From the IMG/VR virus record IMGVR_UViG_2541047915_000012: DNA of 38,067 bases. One strand, given 5' to 3'. The translations under genes and the position numbers were made by a program. Positions 256 to 25,016 of this stretch are shown here, piece after piece; position 1 is the stretch's first letter; the number at the start of each line of letters is the position of its first letter. Source of the DNA: a virus (lineage: Duplodnaviria > Heunggongvirae > Uroviricota > Caudoviricetes). The notes beneath the pieces were generated by a model. The model saw only the letters and a list, made by a program, of their open reading frames with translations. It did no database searches and was not told the origin of the DNA.

Positions 256-3201
256 TTAGTGCTTCCCTTCTATTAAGTCTAACCTAGCTTTTATTCTTTC
301 TATTTCTCTGCGCTGCCATGCTGCCTCGATATAGAATAAGAGATCAGGTCTGACCCCCCATCTAGATCCTGCTGGCGTTATTTCAACGCGCTCAATGATG
401 TCTTCCATTACCATCACTGGATTATCATCCTCATCAACAATGATGCTCCCGTCATTATCAGTCAGCGGCATTTCCCTTTGGCCAGTAATGACGTCATCAT
501 ATACTGCGGGATAATCGTCATAGCAAAGAAAGGCATAGCGGCATGTTGTGCTTTCTTCTTCCATGAGTCCGTGAGAAATAAGAACATCACGAAGTTGCTG
601 CGCGATTACACCATGATGTATCCTCGCCCCTTCTTCCCCCTTTATAGCGACAGCGTTCAGCCATTTATAAGCGATATACCTGACGTCACCCCAGGCATCC
701 AGCAATGTTTCGTCAGGAGAGACCGGCTCTGTCTTTAATGTTCCGTCACTGGTAACCACAGGATTGGAGCCAAGATAAACTATCGAGAACCTGTTTCCCG
801 GACCACCAAGAGCATTTACATTATCAAGATAAGGTTTAACATCTCCGTTCTCAAAAAGATGTTCGAGTGCGTTATATACCGCGCGACGTGGAGTACTGCT
901 TCTGGAACCATGCAACGTTATCATTGCACCATCTGCTGAAGACGTTGTTTCACCGCCGCTAACGATTAATCTCTGAGCGGTAACATCATCAGACGGTACT
1001 TTCTTCGCAATAATGGCGTAATTACCCTCAAGTTTGACTTCCGCGCGAACTTGTCCTGATGTACCTGCATGGACAGTCAGTGACTGGACGGCAACATCAT
1101 CTGTGAAATCAACGGGTACAGGAACCGTCCTCACGCCTGACGTCGACATAAAAGTAGGAAGCGTTCTGTTAGGAGTGGCTCCGTAGACAAAATCCCTTGA
1201 AACAAATTCTTCCTGTTTAATTTTCACCCTGAAACAATACAAATCAGCCGGGTGACCATCGTGAACATAAGGATATTTTCTGTTGTTATCCCCTATGCTC
1301 CATGGGTTTAGAAAGTCTTCCCCACCGAAAATGTAGTACAGCCAGTTGTCTTTGATACAAACTGAACCAACACCAACCGCAGAGTTAACTATTCCGCCCT
1401 GATAAATCTGATCAGTAACATTAACCCACTCTACATTATCCAGACTCCACTCATTGACGTTAACTCTGGTCATAAATGTTCTTGGATAGTTTCCTGCATA
1501 ACGGTTATCAGGTTCTCCTCCTTCCCACTCACCAAATGCGCGCTCACTGCCAAAAATAATCAGCTCATCGCCAACTTTGGCAAAAGGAAGGTTTGAGTGA
1601 TGAACATTATTTGGGAAGCGAAGAGAATTCCATGATGTACCTAAATCAGAGCTTCTGTGCAATGAACTACCGGGTTGAGTACTTAATGTCCCCCTGGTCG
1701 TCAGATACAGAATGCCATCATAATATTTTACACATGGCTCAGATGCATTCGCCTCATATTCTGCAGGTATGCGTCTGCGAACAAAGCTACCAGGAGAACC
1801 GAAAGCATCAGAGAAATAGAGTATCCCAAGCTCGCGTGGACCAATATCACCATTATGGTAGCCAACAGCAAAACTGTTATCGCTAATCGTCGCAAAACTG
1901 TGAATCTCAGTAACAGGAGTGCTTCCGTCAACAAAAGAAGGAATAGTTCCAAGACTGGTTTTTCTCCATGGTGACGAGTGAAATGATGTACCAAAACTCC
2001 AGTATCTACCCTCGTTATTCTGATCCACATCCTGGGTATTTTGCGTCGTAACTGTAAAAGTATTTTTATCAATAACAGTAGTCACCGTCATATTCCCGGT
2101 AACACCTGTAACACCAGAGTTTGAGAAGTTGACAAAATCACCAGCAAATAATCCGTGATCAGTAATGCGAATATAAGCGACTTGCTGATTTGCTGCTTTC
2201 GTTATACCACCATAAACGCGAAGGCTGCGACTCATTGGGCGATCCCACAACTCTGCAACCTGCAGTTTATTTCCGCTCACGGTCCGCGTCTCAATTACAG
2301 CAAAAAGGCGATTTCTGACAACCCCCATACTCATGCAGTGATAGTTAACTGTGGGATAGTTTTCATGTAAATCTGTAAGCCATTCCGGCGTTGTCCAGGT
2401 CTTCCCGTCATCTCCTGAGCGAACCCATGCAACATGGAGGTTATTTACACCATGGCGGTCTCCAGCCATAAAAGGCGCATAGATGACATTGTCATATACA
2501 AACGTTTTATCCTGCGTCCAGGCGTTGTACCACGGTGTATCTGTAATTTTAAATAACTCTCCCTGGATAAAATCTTCAGAAACATAAAAAAGAGGCTGAC
2601 CCGGTATTCTCTCAAATAAAAAACGAGCATTTTTAAATCGACTGACATCTGGAAGAGTTGATACTTTAAAAGTAAGCCCTCGCCCATCTATCTTTTCACC
2701 ACCTGTTGCAACAGAAAGTAATTCTGATAGAGCTGATGTATCATCATGAACACCATCACCAATAGCCCCCCAACCTCTTACATCATAACTGTCTCTCCAT
2801 CTTGCTATCTGAAGTTTTGGGTATTTATTCGCTCCATCTGGGTCTTCTAATTGCTGCCGTAGTTGATCAGGATCATACTTCAGCACATTCTGGAAATAGA
2901 ACTGCTGTACGCCATACGCATCGTACACAGCCATAGAATGGCCTTGCACAGTTACGAACTTGGCAATCCGTCCGTTATATACAGGGTAACCAGCAGCGTT
3001 AATGATGATTGGTTGCGAAACAGGAACGTGAGAGCCGTCTTCGTTCTCTACATAAACCTGAATCCGGTTTTCAGGATTTACCGGGTCAGTGTCAATTTTA
3101 CCGATATAAATTTTGCCATTGGCTACGGCTTTAAAAGAACGCGCCATAGTGAAGAGTTGCGAAGGCATCGATACAATCACATTGGCTGTAATGTCTGTCA
3201 T
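256..3201 (-). CDS. Tailspike protein, probable endo-N-acetylneuraminidase (endosialidase) with P22-type head-binding N-terminus and C-terminal intramolecular chaperone domain
   Basis: 981-aa ORF, GGAG RBS before ATG at 3201; N-terminal ~110 aa resemble P22 gp9 head-binding domain (MTDITANV...[19 protein letters not shown]...VTVQGHSMA); two sialidase Asp-box motifs SGDDGKTW and SSDLGTSW; C-terminal ~150 aa resemble autocleaving chaperone domains of endosialidases and tail fibres. Confidence 0.75.
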
Positions 3202-4204: not shown

Positions 4205-4436
4205 GTTGGTTTTTCTCCACGGATTTACCGACAACCGAAGCCCTGACTGTTCCAGCAGTTGGGGCTTCACTGTTTTGATTTCTTTGCCGCATCAAGCATC
4301 ACTTCTGAAAACGTGCGCTTGCCACTGAATACTCTTTCTCTTCTCAATTTTTCGTTCGTGCCAAATGATTCGCCATGAACAAAATTTGGTCTTAAAATGG
4401 TAATCGCAATCTCTTTGACTACTGCATCCAAGCGAA

Positions 4437-4703: not shown

Positions 4704-4952
4704 ATGGCAAAGGGTGTGTCAATTTCTCCAACTACGGTAAGAATCCCTGAATCTTTACGCGAGGCTCTTGCTGTCAGAGCATCAAAAAATGGTCGCTCTG
4801 TTAACTCCGAGATCGTCATGATTTTGCAAGCCGCGATTGATGAAGATAGGTCGCCAAAGTCAGTTGAGTCATTTGCTCAGCAAGAAGCTGATAAATTCAA
4901 AGAGGCGCTACTTGAGACGCTAAAGACCATGTATGCTAAGGATGAAAAATAA
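4704..4952 (+). CDS. mnt: Mnt-like repressor (Arc/MetJ family)
   Basis: 82 aa from ATG at 4704 (AGGTG RBS); ...ASKNGRSVNSEIVMILQAAI... resembles P22 Mnt (...EANGRSMNSELLQIVQDAL). Confidence 0.7.
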   Translation: MAKGVSISPTTVRIPESLREALAVRASKNGRSVNSEIVMILQAAIDEDRSPKSVESFAQQEADKFKEALLETLKTMYAKDEK

Positions 4953-5488
4953 TGCTGCACACAATTCATTTCTTATGCCCTGTTAACACTGCCACTGTTG
5001 GGCAACTTCAGAACCACTGTCTCACCGCATTATCTCAAGGCGCAACTGAATTAAATATCCATATATCAAGTCAGGGAGGGGAAACTGCTGCTGGCTTTAC
5101 TGCGTATAACTTTCTTAAGTCACTCCCTGTTACCGTTAGAACTCACAACATAAGCAATGTTGAATCCATAGCTAATATCGTTTTCCTGGCTGGCTCAGAA
5201 CGTTTCGCAAACCCATTATCAAGATTCCTGTTACATCCTCTATTATGGTGCTTTGCCTCCCCAGCCGCCGACCATGCCAGATTGAGAGAGTACGGGAAAT
5301 GCCTCGATAACGATCTTGATCGCTTCGTTGAGACGTTCAATATCGACATCGGAACCCATATTAGGTGGGCATCCCTGATAGCAGACTCGACCATTTTGGA
5401 TGCTAACAAGGCTCTTGAGCATGGCATAATTAATTCCATAAAAACTGCAAGGCTGGCATCCAATCAGGCAAACTGGTGGGTTGTTTGA
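4952..5488 (+). CDS. ClpP-like serine peptidase (Clp/crotonase fold), function unknown
   Basis: 178 aa; start overlaps mnt stop (TAATG). Alignable by eye to E. coli ClpP: IHISSQGG vs YINSPGG, ...VESIANIVFLAG vs ...AASMGAFLLTAG, SRFLLHP vs SRVMIHQP, ALEHGIINSI vs AVEYGLVDSI; candidate Ser/His/Asp triad present. Confidence 0.55.
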   Translation: MLHTIHFLCPVNTATVGQLQNHCLTALSQGATELNIHISSQGGETAAGFTAYNFLKSLPVTVRTHNISNVESIANIVFLAGSERFANPLSRFLLHPLLWCFASPAADHARLREYGKCLDNDLDRFVETFNIDIGTHIRWASLIADSTILDANKALEHGIINSIKTARLASNQANWWVV

Positions 5489-5536: not shown

Positions 5537-5986
5537 TTAGTCAAACATAGTGTTTCTAAAGTCTCTCGCATACCCTGCTAACACTCTCATTCTATTATGA
5601 TTGTTAGCAGACATGTGAGCTACAGGATGAAAAAGAGCAATCAATGAATACCTGTTCTCATCAAAAAGATTTTGTGCATAAACGAGAGCGGTATTGGATG
5701 TTTTATGCCACTGCAACTTTTGCGGTGTGCTGATATCTGTGCCATTTTTTATTGGCTCAAATTTATTTTCACCAATTGCTAAATGAAGGTGCATAAGGCC
5801 TGCATCTTCAATATCAGGAGGTCGATGATAAGAGGTGTCTCTGCCAAAATAGCTGGGCAACGTTCCCGTAGACTTGTAGATGATAAAATCATCTACAAGT
5901 GTTTGTTTTAAATCAGGAAACTCAACAAAAACCGGGGAGAAAAAATAGTCAAAACTATCCTGATTATATTCCACGGTTACTTGCAT
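5537..5986 (-). CDS. YafO-family toxin-like protein (putative ribosome-dependent mRNA interferase)
   Basis: 149 aa, ATG at 5986 with GAGGT RBS overlapping upstream stop. Blocks shared with recalled E. coli YafO: DFIIYKSTGTLPSYFGRD vs DFISYKRDGVLPDIFGRD; MHLHLA vs AHIHLA; LIALFHPVAH...NNHNRM vs LIAILKPEPH...DNNQMH; C-terminal DFR vs AFR. Confidence 0.55.
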   Translation of the reverse strand: MQVTVEYNQDSFDYFFSPVFVEFPDLKQTLVDDFIIYKSTGTLPSYFGRDTSYHRPPDIEDAGLMHLHLAIGENKFEPIKNGTDISTPQKLQWHKTSNTALVYAQNLFDENRYSLIALFHPVAHMSANNHNRMRVLAGYARDFRNTMFD

Positions 5987-5994
5987 GTTTTACC

Positions 5995-6561
5995 TCAGTG
6001 GAAGTTACCAGAGTGAAACACACGAGTCCCGTGCTCAGCAAGCGCACGCAAACCAGCCATATCTACGGAACTATCAAAAACAACCGGAACACATGAGCGT
6101 TGTTTAATAAGACTATTCAGGTTGGTTACGGCAGATCTGGCATCAGCAACAACGATATAGATATCTCTTGCGATCTCTTTAAAATCAGCAGAAGCTTCTT
6201 TGAATACCGATTTCATTGCCCCTTCAAGTCCTCTCAATTGATGCTCTATCAATCGAGACTTTTCTGGTTCAATGATAGACAACACATTGTCTACATTCTC
6301 ATCGGTAGCGTTTGCAAGAACACGATAAGCGTATTTCAGCATTCGAGACAATTCTTTAATCGAAGACACCGCCTCATGAAGCTCATCATTAGCCCGTTCA
6401 CTGCTGAATGAGGATTGATGGTAAGCGTGCTGAACGTTATCAGTAACAACCACCTCACAACTGAACGCAGAAGCTTGCTGTAATAGCAAACCTATTGCGA
6501 CTCCAGCTTTGGCAGCGTTCAAGCTAAACATTTCATCAATCCCATTAGTCTCATTGCTCAT
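5995..6561 (-). CDS. Hypothetical protein, upstream operon partner of the YafO-like gene (not recognisably YafN/RelB/Phd-like)
   Basis: 188 aa from ATG at 6561 with perfect AAGGAGG RBS 5 nt upstream; stop is 8 nt before the YafO-like ATG; tool ORF begins at an upstream TTG. Confidence 0.6.
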   Translation of the reverse strand: MSNETNGIDEMFSLNAAKAGVAIGLLLQQASAFSCEVVVTDNVQHAYHQSSFSSERANDELHEAVSSIKELSRMLKYAYRVLANATDENVDNVLSIIEPEKSRLIEHQLRGLEGAMKSVFKEASADFKEIARDIYIVVADARSAVTNLNSLIKQRSCVPVVFDSSVDMAGLRALAEHGTRVFHSGNFH

Positions 6562-6736
6562 ACAAACCTCCTTCTTATCGGAGATTATCAATAGCTATGC
6601 ATCCATTGAATACACGCTATGCGCAATAAGTTTACGTCACGTGATATCATTATGCAACCACCGTTCTATCACCGACTAACTTTACTCCCACTCCTATACA
6701 TCATCTGGTATCCTGCGCAAAACTAAGGAGGTTGGT

Positions 6737-7087
6737 GTGAATGCTCAGTCTGTCATCATGGTTTTCCTTGGGCTGATTGTCGCAAAACTATATCCAGACT
6801 GGTGGAAAGGGGCATTAGCTACTGTCGCCATCTATTTGCTTTTATCCATCGTTAAGCGATCACTCGCTGAGACCGTAAATCAAGCAAAACGTTTCTCATT
6901 TAAGAGTTTAATAAACTATGTTACTGGGCTTATTTTTTGCCTTTCAATTCTGATCGCTTCGGCTTTTTTGCCCGTATCAATAGCTAATTTTTTTGGCGCA
7001 CCATATGAGGTAGGTTATCTATTCTCTGTTTCCTGTCTTGCCATTGCTCTTCTTTACCTGTGGACGAGATCAAAGAATAAAAATTAG
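6737..7087 (+). CDS. Small integral membrane protein (about 4 predicted TM helices), candidate superinfection-exclusion-type protein
   Basis: 116 aa, GTG start preceded by AAGGAGG; hydrophobic stretches VIMVFLGLIVAKLY, ALATVAIYLLLSIV, LIFCLSILIASAFLPVSIANFF, VGYLFSVSCLAIALLYLW; divergent from the 5995-6561 operon. Confidence 0.55.
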   Translation: MNAQSVIMVFLGLIVAKLYPDWWKGALATVAIYLLLSIVKRSLAETVNQAKRFSFKSLINYVTGLIFCLSILIASAFLPVSIANFFGAPYEVGYLFSVSCLAIALLYLWTRSKNKN

Positions 7088-7104
7088 CCATCCGTGGCTG
7101 CCAG

Positions 7105-9121
7105 TTATTGAGCTTCTTTTTGTGATGCCTGTGCGACTCTGGTGAGCGATTGTGTGACCGTACTGATCGCTCTGTCATATGCTGTGCTACCTTTTGGCGT
7201 ATTTGCCAGACGTAACAAGGCATTTCGTATAACAGGGCTTTCGTATGCCTTCGCAGCTCCTCCTACGACACCAGCAGCAGGAACAACAAACGCAGCCGTT
7301 TTTAGCATCCCCGCTAATACTGCTGCGTTTATGATGCCACCACCAACTAACAATCCATAAAGCTGCTGACCATTTAAGTTTTGAACGTTCGCTTTTGCCG
7401 CGTGTCTTGTATCGTTGAGGTATTTAATAACGCCGTCCAGTTCCTTTCCATGTACGCCTTTAAAGAAAGTTGCTGATTGCTTCCTGTTCCGGTGTAACGC
7501 ATTAATAAACTTTTCAACACTAATATTTCCAGACGGATCAGTCGCCTTATCTACAGCATTCTGAACTATGGCTGCTCGTGCGTTTTGCCTACCATTGTCA
7601 TCCAGAAGCCTGTAAAGCTGAGAACGTTCTGATGGGTTTTGGCTAAAAACGAGTTTTGTTACATCCTCAGGTGTAGCCTTGCCGCTGGCTATTGCCTTTT
7701 GAACGCGCGTTCTTCCCATCATGTCATTGAATCTAGCCCATGAGCGATCAACCCTAGACATATTGGCAGCTTCTTCTGAGCCTAGTTTTTGGGATACTGC
7801 TTTTTTCATATCCGCTGTATATGCCTTGTAGACAATATCGCTGGCTTTCTGGAGCGTGTCTTTATCAACAGTCTCGTTTGAATTCATGAACCGCTTTCGA
7901 AGGTCAGTTCTGTTTTCTCTCGCCAGACGCAGGTCATTGGGTCCGCTGGTGATATCGTCTTTAAATTGCTGCAAGACTTTTACCGCGGCTCTATCCTGAG
8001 ATTTGCCCGGGCGGCTTAACACGGCAATCTGATTGTCGATAGCTTTTACCGTGTTTGAGAGATCGACAGGGGTATCCCCCATAGCGTCAATTATGCGGTT
8101 ATATCGCTTTCCTGCTGCCTCAATGAATTTTTGTTGCCCTTTAGTCGCAGATTCATAAAGCTGTTTATCAGAAATGCCACCCAGACCATCGCTAAATGTT
8201 CTGACTAAATTTTCTCGTGCTTGTTGTTGATTCAGCCGATTCTTACCGGTTCCAAAAAAAAGGAACTCTTTCGCCTAATGTCTGAGCCTGACTCTGCATA
8301 AAGGTTTTATCTTTCAGCGTGTCACTGGTCATTAACGGCAGGTTTCTTTCCGACGCAAAATCGACAGCAGCCTTTGCTTCCGGTGACATCTCACCGCGAA
8401 CAGCCCTGGAAACCGCACTAACTGTATTTTCCAGCCCCTTGCCAACACCACCAATGCCAGCAGAAATTACCGTTTGTGCAGGATCAATATCTTCTCCGCC
8501 AGCAAGGCTGGTGCCACCCTGTAGTGCTAAATCTGTAGCAGCTGATTTCCCTATGGCACCAAGCACCGTTCCAGCCCTGCCCGCTGGTGTGAACGCTAAC
8601 GCATTAGCAAGAAACGAAGTCAGGTCTTGCGGTGATAAACCTGGCTTGTTCAGGGCATAATCACCGGATGGCAGGGAAACGATAGTGTTACCCTTCTCAT
8701 CCTGCCTTAATTTCGCCCCCATACTCTGAAGAATCTTTTCCTGAGACGCGTCGGAGCCGAAAAGTTGAGACCATCCAGCCTTCAGGGCATCCATGCTTAG
8801 TGAGTTCAACTCAGGGGCAGCCCCAACATTTTGCAGTCTCTCCATTTCTGGTGTCATTCGGCTTTCACCGGTAACGGCATCGCGCATTGCAGCACCTAAA
8901 ACAGCCCCTTGCTCAGCAGAGCGATCTAGTCCTTCCTTCTGCTGAGTGGCAAGCTGTGCATATCCTGATGCAAGTGAGTTGTCTGCTGGCGATTGCTGAA
9001 CACCTTGTTGTGTTGGCGCTGACTGACCAGCAAAATACTCATCAATGGCGGACCCAATATCTTCCGTGCTCGTACCATCAGGAAAGGTAAATGTCTTACC
9101 ATTTGCAGTTACTTTCATCAT
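7105..9121 (-). pseudogene. Ejection protein gp16 homolog with reading frame interrupted at an A8/T8 homopolymer
   Basis: Two same-strand ORFs (8243..9121, 292 aa; 7105..8082, 325 aa) where P22 has one gene 16; the downstream ORF frame stays open upstream through the homopolymer at 8254-8261, so a 1-nt change would fuse them (~670 aa). Confidence 0.5.
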
Positions 9122-22199: not shown

Positions 22200-22637
22200 T
22201 CATCGAAGGCATTGCGTCCTGATGTACTCCTGCAGGTAGTTAACCTGCGCGGTTATCCTGTCGATTCCACTTCGGAGACGGTAATAATTGAGTTCAGCAT
22301 CTGCTGTAAGTCTTGGGTTTTCTCCATCGCCCATGCTGCTGGCTCCGGTCGTTGACTTTGCACAGGTGGCGGCGACTTGCAGGCGCTTACGCCCAGCAGA
22401 AACATCAGCACGGAGACTTTCGATAGTCGCGTTAGCATCAGCAAGCTCCTTTGTGTATCTTGCGTCGAGTTCTGCTACATCACGTTGACGCTTCCGCATA
22501 TCAGCGATGATGGATGTGGCTTTATCGCGCTGCTCTTTGTAGGCGATTGCATTATCACGGTAATGATTAACAGCCCATGACAGGCAGACGATGATGCAAA
22601 TAATCAGAGCGGAGATAATCGCGGTGACTCTGCTCAT
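22200..22637 (-). CDS. Rz: Spanin, inner-membrane subunit (Rz)
   Basis: 145 aa; N-terminus [31 protein letters not shown] nearly identical to recalled lambda Rz; start overlaps R stop. Confidence 0.8.
22253..22444 (-). CDS. Rz1: Spanin, outer-membrane lipoprotein subunit (Rz1), embedded in Rz in a different frame
   Basis: 63-aa ORF wholly inside Rz; hydrophobic leader ending in lipobox-like VSAC, then proline-rich [13 protein letters not shown]; true start may be an internal Met. Confidence 0.55.
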
Positions 22638-23110
22638 ACCTCAATCTCTCTGACCGTTCCGCCAGCCTCTTTGAATTTTGCAATCAGGTTGTCAGCCTTA
22701 TGCTCGAACTGACCATAACCAGCGCCCGGCAGTGAAGCCCAGATATTGCTGCAACGGTCGATTGCCTGACGAATATCACCGCGGTCAATCATCGGTAAAG
22801 CGCCACGCTCTTTAATCTGCTGCAATGCCACAGCGTCCTGACTTTTCGGAGAGAAGTCTTTCAGACCAAGCTGCTTACGGTAGGCATCCCACCAACGGGA
22901 AAGAAGCTGGTAGCGTCCGGCGGCTGTTGATTTGAGTTTTGGGTTTAGCGTGACAAGCTTGCGAGGGTGATCGGAGTAATCAGTAAATAGCTCTCCGCCT
23001 ACAATGACGTCATAACCATGATTTCTGGTTTTCTGCCGTCCGTTATCAGTTCCCTCTGACCACGCCAGCATATCGAGGAACGCCTTACGTTGATTATTGA
23101 TTTCCACCAT
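22634..23110 (-). CDS. R: Endolysin, lambda R-type lytic transglycosylase
   Basis: 158 aa; [51 protein letters not shown]... essentially as recalled for lambda R. Confidence 0.85.
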
Positions 23111-23417
23111 CTTCTACTCCGGCTTTTTTAGCAGCGAAGCGTTTGATAAGCGAACCAATCGAGTCAGTACCGATGTAGCCGATGAACACGCTCGTTATAT
23201 AAGCGAGATTGCTACTTAGTCCGGCGAAGTCGAGAAGGTCACGAATGAACCAGGCGATAATGGCGCACATCGTTGCGTCGATTACTGTTTTTGTAAACGC
23301 ACCGCCATTATATCTGCCGCGAAGGTACGCCATTGCAAACGCAAGGATTGCCCCGATGCCTTGTTCCTTTGCCGCGAGAATGGCGGCTAACAGGTCATGT
23401 TTTTCTGGCATCTTCAT
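23094..23417 (-). CDS. S: Holin, lambda S-type (class I) with dual-start motif
   Basis: 107 aa; begins [41 protein letters not shown]..., Met1-Lys2-Met3 dual start as in lambda S107/S105. Confidence 0.85.
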
Positions 23418-23796: not shown

Positions 23797-23868
23797 TGAA
23801 GTGGTTTACTGAATTTGGCCACCTGAACAGAGGTGATATGCTCACCTCAGAACAACACAGGTGCCATA

Positions 23869-25016
<1,148 letters not shown>

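Follow-up and report, generated by a model that had tools for sequence, protein, structure and literature searches.

What is the role of the small gene that lies on the plus strand between a divergent toxin operon and the DNA ejection gene of a P22-like prophage? The initial annotation of this DNA described its product as a polytopic membrane protein, tied it to the toxin operon through ribosome-binding-site (RBS) contexts, a divergent promoter region and a palindromic cluster, and considered its position and topology to fit an inner-membrane superinfection-exclusion protein. The 116-aa open reading frame, here called ORF116, is present as claimed. The questions are whether it is a gene, which system it belongs to and what its product may do.

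The window, that is the whole 38,067-nucleotide stretch of DNA analysed, is identified as a CUS-3-type, K1-specific P22-like prophage, because its tailspike is an endosialidase fused to the P22 head-binding domain and an acyltransferase gene adjoins the tailspike gene in Escherichia coli S88. Over 2 kb, the sequence matches prophages of E. coli S88, APEC O1, ATCC 11775 and other ExPEC/APEC strains at 100% identity. The gene order is tailspike, ant, arc, the mnt-like and ClpP-like genes, the YafO-family toxin gene with the gene for a 188-aa phrog_8416 protein, ORF116 and gene 16 (table 1). The late operon is on the minus strand, opposite to ORF116, which is assigned to the 'ant moron' of P22-like phages. 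In the neighbouring immI region, a clear match to the sar antisense RNA lies opposite the start of ant, so that P22-type antisense control is apparently conserved in this CUS-3-type element. The ClpP-like protease gene overlaps the stop of the mnt-like repressor gene and appears to be co-transcribed with it. It is an unusual passenger in immI, and its 3' end is common to phages EC.P3, phiv205-1 and E212.

Gene 16 encodes a DNA ejection protein. Compared with gene 16 of E. coli S88, which is intact and encodes 670 aa, it has one extra nucleotide (an A) at 8254 that splits it into two open reading frames, so that this prophage copy probably cannot produce infectious virions. In many matching genomes the gene 16 region is annotated as three 'hypothetical proteins' instead of an 'injection protein', and the frameshift is suggested to be a mutation common to a lineage. 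Three IS3-family copies, each with an HTH_Tnp_1 and an rve transposase open reading frame, lie within 9 kb of the early region and are taken as further evidence of prophage decay. ORF116 and gene 16 converge. The gap between them is 17–24 nt in all homologue loci, and gene 16 is the constant neighbour of ORF116, regardless of the upstream genes, in the loci of E. coli, Yersinia and Edwardsiella and on three diverged IMG/VR contigs (L144–L146). A 5-bp hairpin, AGCCA-N4-TGGCT, is followed by a T-rich tail on the minus strand; a terminator-like site of this kind in the spacer is at chance level.

Table 1. Features discussed in the text; positions are those of the window, except for the loci L006 and L007, which are numbered on their own IMG/VR contigs.
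Feature	Position	Strand	Remarks
Tailspike gene	256-3201	-	endosialidase type
sar antisense RNA	4205-4271	+	RF00262, 83.9 bits
mnt-like gene	4704-4952	+	Arc-family repressor
ClpP-like protease gene	4952-5488	+	
YafO-family toxin and phrog_8416 genes	5537-6561	-	p188+YafO module
Variable intergenic part	6562-6705	.	belongs to p188+YafO module, outside the ORF116 cassette; TCACGTGA and TGATATCA at 6637-6649
sieA-type leader TGGTATCCTGCGCAAAACTAAGGAGGTTGGT-GTG	6706-6739	+	34 nt; left recombination junction of the cassette
Extended -10-like TGGTATCCT	6706-6714	+	start of the leader
Shine-Dalgarno AAGGAGG	6725-6731	+	5-nt spacer to GTG
ORF116	6737-7087	+	116 aa, GTG start, TAG stop; predicted four-helix inner-membrane protein; sieA-slot cassette
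Hairpin AGCCA-N4-TGGCT	7086-7099		
Spacer	7088-7104		17 bp; separates the stop codons of the convergent ORF116 and gene 16
Gene 16	7105-9121	-	DNA ejection protein of the P22 gp16 family; converges on ORF116; flanks the cassette on the right
Gene 16 fragments	7105-8082, 8243-9121	-	
Lysis cassette	22200-23417		homologous HS1 genes annotated as holin, endolysin and lysis protein
IS3-family copies	23833-25016, 28374-29557, 31842-33025		HTH_Tnp_1 and rve in each
Example leader-linked cassettes	L006 4038-4226; L007 4038-4367		

Length alone is weak evidence for a gene, because the window holds 82 open reading frames of at least 90 aa. ORF116 is nevertheless judged to be a real gene, because its length, start and stop are conserved across the Enterobacterales (down to 37–42% identity) and because dN/dS against the Yersinia copy is 0.11–0.14, a value that indicates purifying selection. 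Between close alleles the ratio is 0.35–0.46. RefSeq carries the same gene as WP_011703616, annotated from an ATG at 6758 and thus 109 aa long. This start is probably wrong, and the GTG at 6737 is the supported one. It is favoured because GGAGGTTGRTGTG, GTG included, is invariant across seven loci of three genera and in P22, because residues 2–7 (N-x-Q-x-[VI]) are conserved family-wide, and because the most diverged homologues have an ATG at the equivalent codon. RefSeq starts are inconsistent in the family as a whole: some members are given 109 aa from the internal ATG, and others 129–130 aa, with the leader read through. The locus L008 3984–4373 illustrates this inconsistency. The conserved GTG yields 116 aa.

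ORF116 occurs, as two allele groups, in 227 of 5,426 complete E. coli genomes (approx. 4%). The family is narrow. At 90% identity it forms 19 clusters in a set of 5.8 billion proteins, and an exhaustive hidden Markov model search of 1.84 billion representatives recovered seven clusters. All named members are from the Enterobacterales: E. coli, Salmonella, Edwardsiella, Yersinia, Serratia and Pluralibacter. Comparison with Pfam, PHROGs, PADLOC and NCBIfam gave no significant match, and none of the PHROG or PADLOC families matched at E ≤ 0.1. A tblastn search of 50,697 phage records found no match, and the sequence matched no solved structure in the PDB. Scans of the GTDB representative genomes with the leader and family patterns gave no matches and no confirmed relatives, and this collection is uninformative. 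No RNA family from Rfam was detected over 6500–7100.

The predicted architecture is that of a small inner-membrane protein. A Kyte–Doolittle profile has four hydrophobic segments, at about residues 4–19, 25–40, 58–86 and 92–110. AlphaFold2 places helices at 3–18, 23–49, 55–85 and 90–115, with low confidence (pLDDT 57 and 64 in two runs). The topology prediction proposed for this protein thus returns four helices and supports, in silico, the inner-membrane pattern. In ten family members the loop at 40–57 carries a net lysine/arginine charge of +3 to +6 and the C-terminus, LYLWTRSKNKN in ORF116, one of +2 to +4. The remaining two loops are near neutral. An orientation with both termini in the cytoplasm is predicted by the positive-inside rule, because the charged loop and C-terminus are conserved family-wide. 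The first two transmembrane segments, each of about 15 aa, are short and might fold as a re-entrant hairpin. The turn between them is the most conserved element of the family, with V15, K17, L18, Y19 and P20 invariant. Given the predicted orientation, this VAKLYPD(W)W turn would be on the periplasmic side. Fold searches were uninformative: Foldseek with the ORF116 model against BFVD and the PDB gave a best E of 0.39.

The link to a known system comes from the DNA ahead of the gene. The sequence TGGTATCCTGCnCAAAACTAAGGAGGTTGGT-GTG precedes ORF116, and the 33 nt upstream of the GTG, in GGTATCCTGCGCAAAACTAAGGAGGTTGGT-GTG, match the P22 sieA leader with one mismatch (32/33). This leader is found in 73 deposited P22-like phage records, ahead of sieA or of uncharacterized genes (hkcB of HK620, gene 14 of epsilon34), and a diverged copy precedes HS1 sieA. 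Scanning IMG/VR with the last 22 nt of the leader yielded more than 120 contigs. Conservation is at least 97% from −31 to +3 and about 60% beyond (60 distinct upstream contexts), so the left edge at −31 is sharp. A scan for sigma-70 consensus promoters on the plus strand upstream of ORF116 found none. The element TGGTATCCT could conceivably act as an extended −10 promoter element, a reading weakened by the HS1 leader, which has CGGTGTTCT at that position, without the TG and the A. In the P22 record, PsieA is annotated immediately 5' of TGGTATCCT, and the DNA beyond −31 is not conserved in the window.

The same leader serves many other genes. In IMG/VR, TGGTATCCTGCnCAAAACTAAGGAGGTTGGTGTG precedes at least 12 unrelated families, SieA included, as defined from 118 complete open reading frames behind it. 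P22-type SieA accounts for nine of these and ORF116 for six. Other families are two-transmembrane peptides of 62 and 75 aa, several proteins with a single transmembrane segment, two of which continue into a coiled coil (107/109 aa and 109 aa), three signal-peptide families and one soluble protein of 140 aa. An N-terminal hydrophobic or transmembrane segment or a signal peptide is present in 11 of the 12. All 12 converge on a gene-16-sized open reading frame, and a Pfam scan assigned a family to none. The commonest (IMG/VR loci L009–L128) are the 107/109-aa coiled-coil protein (n = 27) and a 129-aa secreted protein with the motif AECW (n = 24). Upstream sequence types assort freely with these cassettes. 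The cassettes are more tightly linked to the type of gp16 C-terminus, as is expected if gene 16 itself gives the right-hand homology for cassette exchange.

ORF116 has the location of P22 sieA: it lies between gene 9 and gene 16 and converges on the latter. No other SieA-like gene was detected in the window (tblastn, E ≥ 0.5). Its relationship to sieA is most clearly seen in IMG/VR loci with closely related flanks. Twenty loci encode a gp16 C-terminus at least 92% identical to that of the window. Fifteen carry ORF116, three a 204-aa protein and two a secreted protein. The 204-aa protein is assigned to the SieA family: hhalign against the SieA type A profile gives a probability of 93.7% (E = 1.9e-7) in an alignment that covers the RYPGEA motif, and it is 34% identical to HS1 SieA, NRYPGEAR included. 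Comparison of L158, which has this gene, with L157, which has ORF116, reveals an exchange that is exact from start codon to stop codon. The left flanks are 97% identical up to GGTTGGTGTGA (GGTTGGT-GTGA), and the right flanks, which run from the stop codon into gene 16, are 98.5% identical. Cassette breakpoints also fall at the start and stop codons in L162 versus L160 and in L165 versus L157. Because the L158 and L157 flanks are near-identical and the swap is bounded by the codons themselves, ORF116 and the SieA-family gene are regarded as ORF-precise alleles.

Allelism does not extend to homology. SieA acts at the inner membrane, where it keeps P22-like phages from injecting their DNA, and in P22 the mutations that escape it fall in the C-terminal portions of gp16 and gp20 (Leavitt et al. 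2024, PMC10883804). The gene with 85 bp of upstream DNA is enough for exclusion, HS1 SieA is experimentally active, CUS-3 itself is excluded by P22 SieA and the SieA types tested to date act alike (PMC10883804). Types A to C are united by a cytoplasmic C-terminal motif, FxRYPxEAxxFNK (PMC10883804). A regular-expression search of ORF116 found neither this motif nor RYP alone. BLASTP against P22 SieA gave E = 0.29, and hhalign with the ORF116 family gave probabilities of 1.9% against the SieA type A profile and 0.08% against HS1 SieA, compared with 93.7% for the divergent 204-aa SieA-family protein as positive control. ORF116 is thus, as far as sequence comparison can tell, not a homologue of SieA types A or B. 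The Pfam copy used lacks PF26849 and leaves P22 SieA itself unmatched, so that the Pfam scan is no test of SieA membership.

The reading preferred here, with a probability of about 0.45, makes ORF116 an inner-membrane protein that the prophage expresses and that replaces SieA in function, by a SieA-like mechanism. Its gene would be an accessory (moron) gene that uses, in a CUS-3-type P22-like prophage, the expression slot of sieA. Transcription would probably occur in the lysogen, from its own promoter and antisense to the late operon, and translation would start at the GTG behind the strong sieA-type Shine–Dalgarno sequence. The product is expected to be a small four-helix protein of the inner membrane, with its N- and C-terminus cytoplasmic and the VAKLYPD(W)W turn on the periplasmic side. 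As a non-homologous substitute for SieA, it would disturb the gp20/gp16 conduit through which superinfecting P22-like phages deliver their DNA. A phage that has adsorbed would then be unable to inject its DNA. In favour of a SieA-like function, 11 of the 12 leader-linked families are envelope proteins. Against it are the lack of similarity to SieA types A and B, the different length and helix layout, the low AlphaFold2 confidence, and the divergence of the region that holds PsieA in P22 together with the missing plus-strand consensus promoter. Position alone does not fix the function of ORF116, and occupancy of the slot does not dictate mechanism, because signal-peptide proteins and one soluble protein are found there as well. 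The proposed fit to superinfection exclusion is therefore strengthened by the sieA position, the leader, the allelism and the predicted topology, and weakened by the missing SieA homology and by the secreted and soluble occupants of the slot. That ORF116 has some prophage-expressed role in defence or conversion at the level of the envelope is likely.

Such a role need not resemble that of SieA. ORF116 could be an inner-membrane defence or lysogenic-conversion protein with another target or mechanism: it might mask a host inner-membrane factor against unrelated phages, cause RexB-like abortive infection or change envelope physiology or virulence. It is not homologous to SieA, and the envelope proteins of the slot are mechanistically diverse (single-transmembrane coiled-coil, secreted and two-transmembrane). 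The gene is maintained in the E. coli genomes counted above, ExPEC/APEC strains of the ST95 type included, and it is kept in defective-looking prophages with a frameshifted gene 16 and three insertion sequences, which suggests a benefit to the host. Set against this are the absence of any PADLOC or PHROG match, including any Sie, Abi or Rex models in those libraries, the lack of any indication of a specific alternative target, and the allelism with SieA, which favours equivalent function as the simplest reading. A mechanism or target other than that of SieA is somewhat unlikely.

ORF116 might instead be a partner specific to the gp16 of its own phage, for example shielding the membrane of the producing cell from gp16 or aiding the handling of the E-proteins. 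Homologues of ORF116 from 100% down to 39% identity lie beside one gp16 clade (100% to 66% identity) in every case examined. This association is compatible with target specificity, and physical linkage explains it equally well: adjacency, with no shared junction sequence on the gp16 side, is sufficient. The same gp16, as judged by the C-terminus, occurs with the SieA-family gene or the secreted protein in five of the 20 loci, and so gp16 does not need ORF116. For the same reason, an exclusive pairing of ORF116 with this clade was rejected as proof of functional specificity. P22 hybrids that carry CUS-3 genes 7, 20 and 16 alone are, moreover, fully viable (PMC10883804). A dedicated partnership with gp16 is very improbable.

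A third possibility, suggested by the RBS contexts and palindromes of the initial annotation, is that ORF116 works with the divergent p188+YafO toxin operon as its membrane component or as a co-regulated partner. The observations that prompted it are correct. The gap from ORF116 to the divergent gene, which starts with an ATG at 6561, is 175 bp. Both RBS contexts are present, AAGGAGGTTGGT-GTG (6725–6739, plus strand) and AAGGAGGTTTGT-ATG (6559–6573, minus strand), so that both starts lie in a AAGGAGGTTKGTRTG context. The CACGTG (6638) and GATATC (6643) cluster lies within two overlapping 8-mer palindromes, TCACGTGA and TGATATCA, and two such palindromes this near each other arise in 2% of shuffles of the intergenic region. 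The p188+YafO module also co-occurs with ORF116 in four of seven leader-defined loci, compared with four of 111 other loci. The proposed tie itself fails, since the two modules assort independently. The module and its palindromes also lie beside four other cassettes (C1, C2, C3 and C11). The remaining three of the seven ORF116 loci lack it, and the Yersinia, Edwardsiella and L008-type loci have different genes upstream. The likeness of the RBS contexts is real, but it is no sign of coupling, because the ORF116 site belongs to the sieA leader, which is found on more than 100 phage contigs with unrelated upstream neighbours. The window has seven AAGGAGG sites, and one pair that matches at four of the five following bases is estimated to be unremarkable given that number; the two are best read simply as strong Shine–Dalgarno sites. 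The enrichment is explained by the clonal CUS-3 lineage. Joint action with the toxin operon, already largely refuted by independent assortment, is barely credible, and the link between ORF116 and the YafO module is considered incidental.

The YafO-family toxin gene (Pfam E = 3e-22) is preceded by that of the 188-aa phrog_8416 protein in place of a gene for a YafN-like antitoxin, and this protein has no match to an antitoxin family. The two may form an atypical toxin–antitoxin or defence pair, and they move as an independent module together with the TCACGTGATATCA palindromes. The corresponding position upstream of the slot holds Panacea-domain or ImmA/IrrE-family genes in further P22-like prophages (L006 3220–3669, L007 3220–3663, L008 2589–3071). 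The segment beside the sieA slot may be a second hotspot for toxin–antitoxin or defence modules.

That ORF116 is a holin or an antiholin-like protein that acts in lysis timing is just as improbable: the sub-threshold Pfam resemblance to Phage_holin_3_6 (E = 0.065, 13.7 bits against a cut-off of 28.4) and the Foldseek holin matches (E = 0.8–1.7) are not significant, the prophage has a separate lysis cassette, and ORF116 is part of the ant moron, runs counter to the late operon and has alleles that include SieA.

Replacement of SieA by a non-homologous protein thus remains the preferred reading, and ORF116 is a well-supported candidate, not a demonstrated member, of a new superinfection-exclusion family. 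That the ant moron is hypervariable and that SieA exists were already known. In the literature searched, the ORF116 family, its ORF-precise allelism with sieA and the 34-nt leader that anchors a dozen unrelated cassettes for envelope proteins appear to be undescribed. The fullest version of the proposal is put forward tentatively, at rather less than even odds: ORF116 would found a new exclusion family that blocks the gp16/gp20 conduit, and the sieA position would be a leader-anchored, ORF-precise swap site that holds at least a dozen unrelated envelope proteins. If true, the slot is a compact natural library of injection-blocking or envelope-level anti-phage factors behind one portable 34-nt leader. 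A non-homologous protein in the sieA slot, beside the same ejection gene, would provide an independent handle on how SieA blocks P22 DNA delivery. If ORF116 excludes phage, comparison of its escape mutants with those of SieA would point to vulnerable features of the gp16/gp20 conduit. A hypervariable region also becomes a defined, searchable locus, marked by the 34-nt leader and a convergent gene 16, with about a dozen candidate envelope-level defence proteins. Several of these are common in prophages of pathogenic E. coli and Salmonella, and they are relevant to host range in phage therapy, for example that of K1-specific phages against ExPEC. For ORF116 itself, the annotated start codon is corrected for a gene in about 4% of complete E. 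coli genomes.

Several known systems invite comparison. HK97 gp15, T4 Imm and lambda RexB (four transmembrane segments) are small phage inner-membrane proteins that are expressed apart from the surrounding operon and that block DNA entry or abort infection. They differ from ORF116 in genomic context and phage group, and were compared with it through the PHROG and PADLOC scans only. Closer in context are hkcB of HK620 and gene 14 of epsilon34, which have the same leader and position as ORF116 but belong to unrelated cassette families. The ant moron is the hypervariable accessory region in which ORF116 lies. It is in rapid flux among P22-like phages, and its CUS-3/UTI-1/APEC-1 type comprises about six genes, mostly of unknown function, according to the portions consulted of Villafane et al. 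(2008, PMC2629481). Those portions concern flux of gene content generally and do not mention the 34-nt leader, ORF-precise exchange, an envelope bias or a role for the ORF116 gene. The nearest counterparts are P22 SieA (type A) and HS1 SieA (type B) (Leavitt et al. 2024, PMC10883804; PF26849). ORF116 is shorter than these (116 compared with 162–212 aa), and its layout differs, with four predicted helices arranged as two hairpins in place of three to four transmembrane segments and a soluble loop of about 50 aa. The slot is nonetheless the same, with a gap of about 17–22 nt to gene 16, and leader, Shine–Dalgarno sequence and GTG are shared with P22 sieA but for the single mismatch in 33 nt. SieA and ORF116 are alike in being small, polytopic proteins of the inner membrane (predicted for ORF116), without a signal peptide, encoded by P22-like prophages of the Enterobacterales.
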